A DNA stretch of 64,000 nucleotides, from assembly GCF_988243305.1 (NCBI RefSeq), contig NZ_OZ547136.1; one strand, given 5' to 3'. Below the pieces are notes generated by a model, which saw only the letters and a list, made by a program, of their open reading frames with translations, did no database searches and was not told where the DNA came from. Positions 27,555-29,414 of the stretch are shown in pieces (position 1 is the stretch's first letter; every line of letters starts with the position of its first letter). A program made the position numbers and the translations under genes.

Positions 27555-27580
27555 TTCCTGAAAACCTCGGTTTACGGGAA
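27555..27580. other. gix-like recombination site (left)
   Basis: TTCCTGAAAACC-TC-GGTTTACGGGAA resembles gix/hix consensus. Confidence 0.6.
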
Positions 27581-27636
27581 ACGGTAAACAGGGCGGCGAA
27601 TGCCCTGCCATCGGACGGCACCGCCGTTGCCGCGAA
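27567..27636. repeat. 70-bp perfect inverted repeat, left copy (boundary of invertible tail-fibre segment)
   Basis: TCGGTTTACGGGAAACGGTAAACAGGGCGGCGAATGCCCTGCCATCGGACGGCACCGCCGTTGCCGCGAA is the exact revcomp of 28816..28885. Confidence 0.8.
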
Positions 27637-27928
27637 TAGACTCGCCACCCCAAGAAATATTAATGGGGTTCCCTTTGACGGGACGCAGGACATAAACATC
27701 ACTTCTGGTATAACACAGCAGGATGCGGATTCCCGATATATCCAGGATATCAGGCTGGGAGCAGAGAACAGGCAGGTAATGTACGGTGGGGCATATTACT
27801 CTGCGTACGGTAATGTTATGGCAGGCCTGCAGATTGACAGTAAAGTTGATGCTTCAAACGATTTTATAGCATTCAGACCCCTGCAAAAATTAGTCGGAGG
27901 TACATGGATTACGGTATCTCAGTTATAA
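27569..27928 (+). other. silent alternative tail-fibre C-terminal cassette (S'v-like), no start codon
   Basis: Plus frame from the gix core encodes [47 protein letters not shown]...VSQL*, homologous to the C-terminus of the expressed fibre. Confidence 0.6.
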
Positions 27929-27979
27929 ATAGTCAGTAAATAATATATTTTAAAACAGATTTATTTCCAGGAGGATTTT

Positions 27980-28501
27980 ATGGAACTAAAAAATATAACC
28001 CGTTATTATCCTGAAAATATGCCATATGGTAATAATGTTCAGTATTTCCAGAGTGAAGATGGTAAGGATTTCTACGAATCCCTGCCATTATTCACCAAAA
28101 AATATAAACTTTGCATAACACCTGACAGCGGCGTTATCTGCTCAATATCACAGGACGCCTCGGCGCTGTATCCTGCGGGGTTTTCTGTGGTTGAGGTCGA
28201 TGAACTCCCTGAAGGCACGGATATTTCAGGAAACTGGAAGTTTGATAATGGCATAATCTCCCGTATTCCGGTTAACTACGCAAGAAAACTGGAAGCAATG
28301 CGCCAGTCATATCTTAATCAGGCATATGAAAAAATTAATGACTGGAGAACGGAGCTACAACTGGGCACCATCAGCGATGAAGACAGAGCAGCACTTACCC
28401 AATGGATGGCATACATCAGTCAGGTGAAGAAAATGGAACTACCCGCCATTAAAACAGAAGCTGAATTTAACGCCATTAAATGGCCTGAGCAGCCACAGTA
28501 A
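27980..28501 (+). CDS. tail fibre assembly protein (U/Tfa-like)
   Basis: 173-aa ORF with C-terminal ...DEDRAALTQWMAYISQVKKMELPAIKTEAEFNAIKWPEQPQ typical of tail-fibre assembly chaperones. Confidence 0.7.
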   Translation: MELKNITRYYPENMPYGNNVQYFQSEDGKDFYESLPLFTKKYKLCITPDSGVICSISQDASALYPAGFSVVEVDELPEGTDISGNWKFDNGIISRIPVNYARKLEAMRQSYLNQAYEKINDWRTELQLGTISDEDRAALTQWMAYISQVKKMELPAIKTEAEFNAIKWPEQPQ

Positions 28502-28532
28502 TAAAGAAGGCCGGAAGGCCTTCTGAATATCA

Positions 28533-29414
28533 TTATATACTTGCAGCCGTCACCCATGCTCCATTTAACAGATACTGCAACGGCCGGTAATACACGCCGC
28601 CGACGTTATCTGCCGTATTCTTACCGACATCCTGTACTTTAATTCCGGTAAGAACATTGCCGCCCCCCAGATTCAGATCCCAGCTTTCCCATGTTCCGGG
28701 CATATGTGCGGTCACCGACCCCAGTCTTATGGCGGTTACTGTTCCTGATGAGATAGTGATATCCTGCGTCCCGTCAAAGGGAACACCATTAATTGTGTGG
28801 GCATTTGCCAGCCTGTTCGCGGCAACGGCGGTGCCGTCCGATGGCAGGGCATTCGCCGCCCTGTTTACCGTTTCCCGTAAACCGACGTTATCGATAAAAG
28901 CCCCTTTATCCGGAATGTCTGCGCCGTTCTGCTCCCTGCGCAGGTAACGGTTATCACCTTCGCTTTTGCTGTAAACATCCAGATTATTACGGGCGGTTCC
29001 CTTATTCTCCAGGTCGGCGAGATTCTGATCCTTCGCCAGGGCATTAACGTCAGCGGGACCAAGACTGTTTTTTGTGGCAAGCGTCCCCAGACCAAGATAA
29101 CCACGGGCCAGACGCTGGGCCTCCGCACCGGCATCAGCAATTTCTTTCAGGTTATTTTTCCGGGAAAAGGCATTCGCAGCGATAATGGCTTTAATGGACA
29201 GCGTAAGCTGGTTTAACTGCGCCTTATCCGGCTGAATACTGGCTTCAGCCAGAATATTCAGCAGTTCGGCCTGGAGAATATTCAGCCAGTCCTGACCAAT
29301 CCAGCTGATACCTTTTTGTCCGTCACCTTCGGTAAACCAGGTGGTGGTATTACTCTGCGCCGGTGCCAGCGCAGGCATATTCGCCACGCCGGAATTATTA
29401 TCAACATGAAACAT
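28533..29414 (-). CDS. tail fibre protein (constant N-terminal part plus currently expressed variable part)
   Basis: 293-aa ORF; the gix core lies in-frame inside it at ~28884. Confidence 0.8.
28816..28885. repeat. 70-bp perfect inverted repeat, right copy
   Basis: Exact revcomp of 27567..27636. Confidence 0.8.
28872..28897. other. gix-like recombination site (right)
   Basis: Revcomp reads TTATCGATAACG-TC-GGTTTACGGGAA; inner half-site identical to left site, core dinucleotide inverted. Confidence 0.55.

Follow-up and report, generated by a model that had tools for sequence, protein, structure and literature searches.

How does a phage that switches between two tail-fibre tips manage with a single chaperone gene? 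The question is raised by a stretch of 64,000 nucleotides of contig NZ_OZ547136.1 (RefSeq assembly GCF_988243305.1), here called the window, in which the tail-fibre gene contains an invertible segment with two alternative tip cassettes and only one tail-fibre assembly gene, tfa. The switch belongs to a Mu-like prophage of Escherichia coli whose family, Sp18, has been described before. We found that the switch is genuine and active, and that it is a compact variant of the Mu-type invertible host-range switch, in which the principle of Gin-type switching is unchanged. Comparative data incline us to the view that one chaperone would be shared by both orientations. We denote as P the cassette that lies upstream of tfa and is co-oriented with it, as L the cassette that converges on tfa, and as Sc the constant part of the fibre. 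The parts of the switch lie in the window as follows.

26917–27489, minus strand: gin-type serine DNA invertase, 190 amino acids, downstream of the fibre gene
27555–27580, plus strand: left gix-like site, 26 bp, TTCCTGAAAACC-TC-GGTTTACGGGAA, core TC at 27567–27568
27567–28885: invertible segment, core to core, 1,319 bp
27567–27636, plus strand: left arm of the perfect 70-bp inverted repeat, with imperfect homology reaching on to about 27708
27569–27928, plus strand: silent P tip cassette, 119 amino acids and stop, in frame with the constant part after inversion
27929–27979, plus strand: AT-rich spacer ahead of tfa, 51 nt, with an AGGAGG ribosome-binding site
27980–28501, plus strand: tfa, 173 amino acids, now antisense to the late genes
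28505–28524: GC-rich hairpin, within the 31 nt that separate the converging stops of tfa and the fibre gene
28533–28883, minus strand: currently expressed L tip cassette, 116 amino acids and stop, converging on tfa
28533–29414, minus strand: tail-fibre open reading frame, 293 amino acids
28816–28885, minus strand: right arm of the perfect 70-bp inverted repeat
28872–28897, minus strand: right gix-like site, 26 bp, TTATCGATAACG-TC-GGTTTACGGGAA, core at 28884–28885
28886–29414, minus strand: constant N-terminal part of the fibre, about 176 amino acids, homologous to the baseplate-docking part of Mu S

A preliminary description of this DNA had reported the two 70-bp inverted repeats, and every coordinate that it gave for them was exact. 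With mismatches, the repeat extends to 86 nt (94%), and a further repeat block of 50 nt (27659–27708 and 28744–28793) is 84% complementary; a perfect 70-bp repeat cannot have arisen by chance in 64 kb. The same description had placed gix-like sites with their cores inside the fibre reading frame, and this was also correct. Two 26-bp sites form the outer edges of the repeat arms, are inverted to each other and share the same 2-bp core TC. Both align with the gix site of phage SfMu (TTATCTAAAACC-TC-GGTTTACAGGAA) and lie on codons homologous to those of the SfMu fibre gene, which encode N(V/L)GL(R/Q)ETVN. When we inverted 27567–28885 in silico, the expressed C terminus was exchanged for the silent in-frame cassette, as had been predicted: the product is an uninterrupted fibre of 296 amino acids, with no stop at the joint, that ends in the 27569–27928 cassette, and tfa then stands behind it in the same direction. 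The current orientation yields a full-length fibre. Antisense open reading frames of 66 and 96 amino acids cross the repeat arms (27502–27702, minus strand; 28657–28947, plus strand), and the Prokaryotic Genome Annotation Pipeline (PGAP) lists 'hypothetical proteins' of similar small size at the same place in two related loci (L003 3200–3394 and L083 3054–3239). These are most likely artefacts of the repeat.

The product of the gene adjoining the segment matched PHROG 125, 'DNA invertase' (E = 1.9e-94), and is 75% identical to SfMu Gin over residues 1–181. Its catalytic residue, Ser9, lies within MLIGYIRVST, so that an invertase with an N-terminal serine stands next to the segment; PGAP labels the identical gene 'recombinase family protein'. 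In the Mu and Hin systems, the 5' part of the invertase gene also contains a recombinational enhancer that depends on Fis. A terminator-like hairpin with a U-run overlaps the last gin codons (26895–26925, minus strand).

We then asked in which orientation the segment occurs in sequenced genomes. The window orientation was found in about 20 complete E. coli genomes at 98.8–99.9% identity. The inverted version built in silico had a one-piece match in five further genomes, four of them at 99.6–99.8% and one at 96.1%. For the window allele, the counts are 20 genomes in the window orientation and 5–6 in the inverted one. Strains DLI.5a and TOE17 each carry two invertible copies in opposite states, and among near-identical strains FORC_029 and FORC_069 are opposite in orientation to NCCP 13983. 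Across the family, we counted orientations in 5,426 genomes with a query made of tfa and the constant fibre part joined either way round: tfa was antisense to the fibre gene, as in the window, in 209 genomes and co-oriented with it in 33. The proposed inversion is thus detectable, both orientations being present in natural complete genomes, and their presence in near-identical strains and within one genome shows that the Gin-type switch is active. The view that the repeats are a relic and that the segment no longer inverts could draw on the single orientation seen in the window and on nothing further. It is contradicted by the occurrence of both orientations at 99.6–99.9% identity, even within one genome and between near-identical strains, and by the perfect 70-bp repeats, the identical cores and the intact gin, and we give it hardly any weight. 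Many IMG/VR contigs (L028, L030, L034–L037, L039 and L040) end inside the fibre gene at residues 169–221, that is, at the inverted repeat, which shows that short-read assemblies routinely break at the invertible segment. We did not count such ends as signs of mixed orientation, because inverted repeats break short-read assembly regardless.

The preliminary description had also stated that the segment contains a single tfa, co-oriented with the silent cassette and antisense to the late transcript, and this was borne out. A tblastn search with three Tfa queries found exactly one Tfa homologue in the 64-kb window. A second assembly gene downstream of the current fibre was looked for, but the minus strand from the fibre stop to gin contained no Tfa-like open reading frame. 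The identity of the single Tfa is clear: residues 1–173 matched PHROG 136 (E = 4.7e-56), residues 18–153 matched Mu U (PDB 5yvq_B, E = 4e-16), and the protein is 33% identical to SfMu gp50 over its full length, with homology that extends over the fibre-binding N-terminal domain as well as the helical C-terminal one. After inversion tfa lies directly 3' of the P cassette and in the same direction, whereas it now converges with the L cassette. Across alleles, its ratio of nonsynonymous to synonymous substitution rates (dN/dS) is 0.10–0.25.

Both tips that this gene could serve belong to one domain family. The fibre matched PHROG 1833, 'tail fiber protein' (E = 7e-141), and its residues 1–198 matched Mu S (PDB 5yvq_A, E = 9e-46). 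The P tip resembles the tip of Mu S (PDB 5yvq_A residues 435–502, E = 8e-8), and the L tip matched a 'short tail fiber' (PDB 9cuy_c, E = 1e-10) and is 48% identical to the tip of SfMu gp52. All P and L tips share one C-terminal domain of about 70 amino acids ending in (Y/F)RPxQ...G.W, which is the same domain as in the Mu S and S' tips. Both cassettes are under purifying selection, with dN/dS of 0.04–0.20 for L at a synonymous divergence (dS) above 0.7 and of about 0.11 for P, the latter measured on diverged alleles of a 118-amino-acid P type in relatives.

To find out what accompanies the L-type tip elsewhere, we followed its signature, ADN(I/V)(G/A)GVYYRP. Seven other phages carry it as well (SfMu, in gp52; Yersinia phage YpM_44; Cronobacter phage CR3; Escherichia phage TH18; a P1 variant; fiAA91-ss; and a P2 variant), and in all of them the next co-directional gene is tfa or encodes a protein of Tfa size. 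An adjacent, co-oriented tfa in seven phages marks the L-type tip as a typical client of Tfa. For the Mu fibre, the passages of PMC9608196 that cite North et al. 2019 describe Tfa as needed for correct trimerization and as staying on the fibre tip.

A natural experiment bears on the same point. In a locked lineage, represented by eight IMG/VR loci and seven complete E. coli genomes that have one deletion junction in common, the deletion took out the left gix site, most of a P cassette and all of gin but the last 22 codons (L004 2520–2840, E. coli M3, is an example; the other loci are L011, L012 and L014–L018). E. coli CI5 is another natural locked strain. The fibre of this lineage is permanently the constant part joined to L, and tfa is permanently convergent. 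Nevertheless, tfa is full-length in all members, with dN/dS of 0.10–0.23, and two sister pairs of locked alleles differ by 19 nonsynonymous and 22 synonymous changes, against a neutral expectation of 79% nonsynonymous (p = 3e-6). An intact and constrained tfa that has no P cassette beside it speaks against a role for P only, because a gene with that role should have decayed. A single clade of locked tfa alleles, which we had hoped for, was ruled out: the alleles are paraphyletic, which means that recombination has shuffled them and that the selection test rests on two sister pairs only. The terminator-like hairpin at the end of gin has been kept with the gin remnant in this lineage (L004 2617–2638). 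E. coli JE86-ST05 (NZ_AP022815.1) carries one invertible and one locked prophage of the family, at about 690 kb and about 812 kb; in genomes with two prophages, Gin from one copy could act on the second.

The family as a whole allowed us to ask whether Tfa follows its co-oriented tip. We mapped the parts of the switch by tblastn in 77 IMG/VR loci and several E. coli loci. Every locus with a readable segment (about 35) contained exactly one tfa, and the single-tfa layout is therefore the norm of the Sp18-type family. There are three very different types of P cassette (119, 118 and 121 amino acids), two types of L cassette (116 and 126 amino acids) and two types of Tfa, which are 61% identical overall, 72% over the N-terminal 100 amino acids and 47% over the remainder. 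The 118- and 121-amino-acid P types are each paired with both Tfa types, so that the Tfa type does not track the co-oriented cassette. Split tblastn matches revealed frameshifts in gin, the P cassette or the esterase gene described below in L013, L031, L048 and L056, reflecting either decay or sequencing errors in draft assemblies.

If one Tfa serves both tips, it would have to be made in both orientations, and the DNA on either side of the gene is of interest in this respect. The spacer ahead of tfa measures 51 nt in the window and 79–121 nt in relatives, whereas the S–U junction of SfMu is 1 nt. An AT-rich spacer of 51–121 nt with the gene's own ribosome-binding site suits independent expression of tfa. 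On the other side, the hairpin between the converging stops has a predicted stability of −13 to −15 kcal/mol in both senses and, read on the minus strand, resembles a terminator. The other allele group has a hairpin of unrelated sequence in the same gap (33–34 nt); a hairpin was present in every case, in gaps of 31–34 nt, and was flanked by a U-run on one side or on both. The hairpin probably terminates transcription in both directions, which would keep the late transcript from running antisense through tfa, and it fits convergent transcription.

Taken together, these features show that Gin recombines the two inverted gix sites within the tail-fibre gene and that the 1.3-kb flip joins the constant fibre stem to either of two tip cassettes of about 117 amino acids. 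For the chaperone they suggest the following model. In the P state, the late transcript would continue from the tip straight into tfa. In the L state, which is that of the window, the late transcript would end at the hairpin behind the fibre stop codon, and transcription of tfa would have to start on the other strand, at a separate promoter within or close to the AT-rich upstream spacer. The segment's single Tfa chaperone would then act on both tips. We hold, by a modest lean and from comparative data, that one chaperone would be shared by the two orientations. A larger proposal, on which we are evenly divided, is that tfa has been uncoupled from the late operon, is expressed whatever the orientation and folds two divergent receptor-binding tips (at least five in the family); the segment would then be the smallest known invertible host-range module, with a convergent arrangement of fibre and tfa stable enough for a fixed lineage.

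Several observations weigh against a shared chaperone. Consensus scans of the DNA upstream of tfa, made for the window, a locked relative and all allele groups, found no convincing sigma-70 promoter. What they returned 20–35 nt upstream of tfa were weak −10-like hexamers at positions that are not conserved, which are unsurprising because the DNA is AT-rich. The best promoter-like sites of the locked lineage (TGGACA-17-CATATT and ATGATA-17-TATAAT) lie across or next to the junction of the deletion, and expression there need not mirror that of the invertible form; some of the selection signal in the locked alleles may also come from recombination with invertible relatives. Finally, we asked whether the N-terminal domain of Tfa reveals its cognate tip. 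It is closest to CR3 gp029 and the Tfa of the P1 variant, both of which are partners of L-type tips, but its lead over other Tfa proteins is small, and the support for the model is accordingly weak.

One possible alternative is that Tfa serves only the co-oriented P tip and that the L tip folds and trimerizes without it, so that the two host-range states differ in chaperone dependence. The preliminary description took this position, proposing that a dedicated chaperone would accompany only one of the two fibre variants. Such a division would be in keeping with the present antisense position of tfa, with the failure of the scans to find a promoter for it, and with the small size of the tips (about 70 amino acids) and the shortness of the fibre (293 amino acids, compared with 504 for Mu S). 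The strong constraint on the L cassette indicates that this tip is functional by whatever folding route. The comparative evidence points the other way: tfa stands behind L-type tips in each of the seven other phages, Tfa is both needed and retained by the Mu S tip, which belongs to the same domain family (North et al. 2019, cited in PMC9608196), tfa is intact and constrained in the locked lineage that has lost P, and Tfa alleles vary independently of P types. We consider a P-only chaperone unlikely, and a Tfa-free reading of the expressed tip is probably wrong. A different explanation accepts that the L-state fibre needs Tfa but holds that its own prophage does not supply it, in which case L would be a fibre-defective off state or would borrow Tfa from other resident prophages. 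E. coli has many tfa genes, with partial matches to this one in 392 genomes, well beyond the Sp18 family, and the C-terminal domain is described as conserved among Tfa proteins (PMC9608196). A dead state is hard to fit with an orientation that prevails among lysogens and in which a whole lineage is fixed, or with the low dN/dS of the L cassette, and a chance co-resident prophage would not explain the conservation of tfa in the locked lineage. In Mu, the segment of a new lysogen has the same orientation as in the infecting particle; by this analogy, the majority of lysogens with tfa antisense suggests that L-tip particles infect E. coli. Dependence on an outside Tfa, or an off state, seems to us more doubtful still.

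The switching mechanism itself is the one known from Mu G/Gin, P1 C/Cin and e14 P/Pin. Among five features of Gin/Cin/Pin-type switches that we tested, four hold for the switch described here, whereas the fifth, a paired S–U and S'–U' organization, was absent. Like the window, Mu G/Gin (and likewise SfMu and D108) has a serine invertase gene directly downstream of the segment, 26-bp gix sites at the same codons of a homologous fibre gene and an in-frame swap of C-terminal tips, and its tip domains (S and S') and its Tfa (Mu U) are homologous to those described here. By contrast, the Mu G segment is about 3 kb long rather than 1.3 kb, its variable parts have about 330 rather than about 117 amino acids, and it has two assembly genes (U and U'), one per variable part, where the window has a single tfa. 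The long spacer before tfa and the hairpin between tfa and a lone converging tip cassette also set the window and its relatives apart from this type. P1 C/Cin and e14 P/Pin belong to the same class of serine-invertase switch inside a tail-fibre gene but, unlike the window, provide a tfa for each orientation: two such genes are present in the P1 variant, and e14 carries tfaE and tfaP (PMC12529663).

Sp18 of E. coli O157:H7 Sakai, the strain in which prophages of this type were first seen, belongs to the same family and has the same single-tfa segment layout. In two O157 loci (L002 and L083) the constant fibre part is 99% identical and is followed by gin, an esterase gene and a DUF1378 gene, to which the window adds a DUF826 gene. 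The window alleles differ from the O157 type in their 119-amino-acid P tip, their 116-amino-acid L tip and a Tfa that is only 61% identical. Asadulghani et al. (PMC2669165) scored the host specificity of Sp18 as atypical in their Table 1, and Mu-like particles were seen by electron microscopy in the same study. Single-chaperone invertible fibre regions also exist outside the Sp18 family, as Erwinia phage ENT90 shows. This P2-like phage (L084 4250–6817) has an invertase gene that matches gin at 73.7% nucleotide identity over 391 bp and, as in the window, several alternative tip cassettes with a single tfa, although it has three cassettes rather than two, unrelated tips, an LGLGEAAK crossover motif and a different Tfa of 158 amino acids. 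We found no discussion of the single-chaperone architecture in the literature that we searched.

Tail-fibre chaperones are usually seen as dedicated partners encoded behind their fibre, and host-range engineering of phages and tailocins normally transfers fibre and chaperone together. Here, a natural switch in more than 200 sequenced E. coli genomes, O157:H7 among them, combines one Tfa with several interchangeable tips of about 70 amino acids, and its layout poses a testable question about fibre–chaperone specificity. A shared chaperone, if true, would offer a compact, generic scaffold of tip and chaperone, would reveal the part of the tip that the chaperone actually reads, and would come with a simple test bed, since natural variants of fixed orientation exist. 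If instead the L tip is Tfa-free, nature would offer an example of a Mu-type tip whose folding needs no Tfa.

The fibre region is the end of an operon of tail and baseplate genes, all on the minus strand, and com and mom lie beyond gin. The genes preceding the fibre gene are as follows.

29414–29974, minus strand: YmfQ/Mu gp48-like wedge protein
29965–31047, minus strand: gp47/J-like baseplate protein

A search for a putative form of the Mu C-activator box (TTAT-N6-ATAA) gave two matches, which is chance level; neither was near the late genes, and the candidate was dropped. A block characteristic of Shiga-toxin phages separates gin from com/mom (24160–26831, minus strand); it encodes a 684-amino-acid protein with a sialate O-acetylesterase (SASA) domain and DUF6645, followed by a DUF1378 gene and a DUF826 gene. 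This SASA/DUF1378/DUF826 cargo is foreign to phage Mu, and the 684-amino-acid protein resembles NanS-p.

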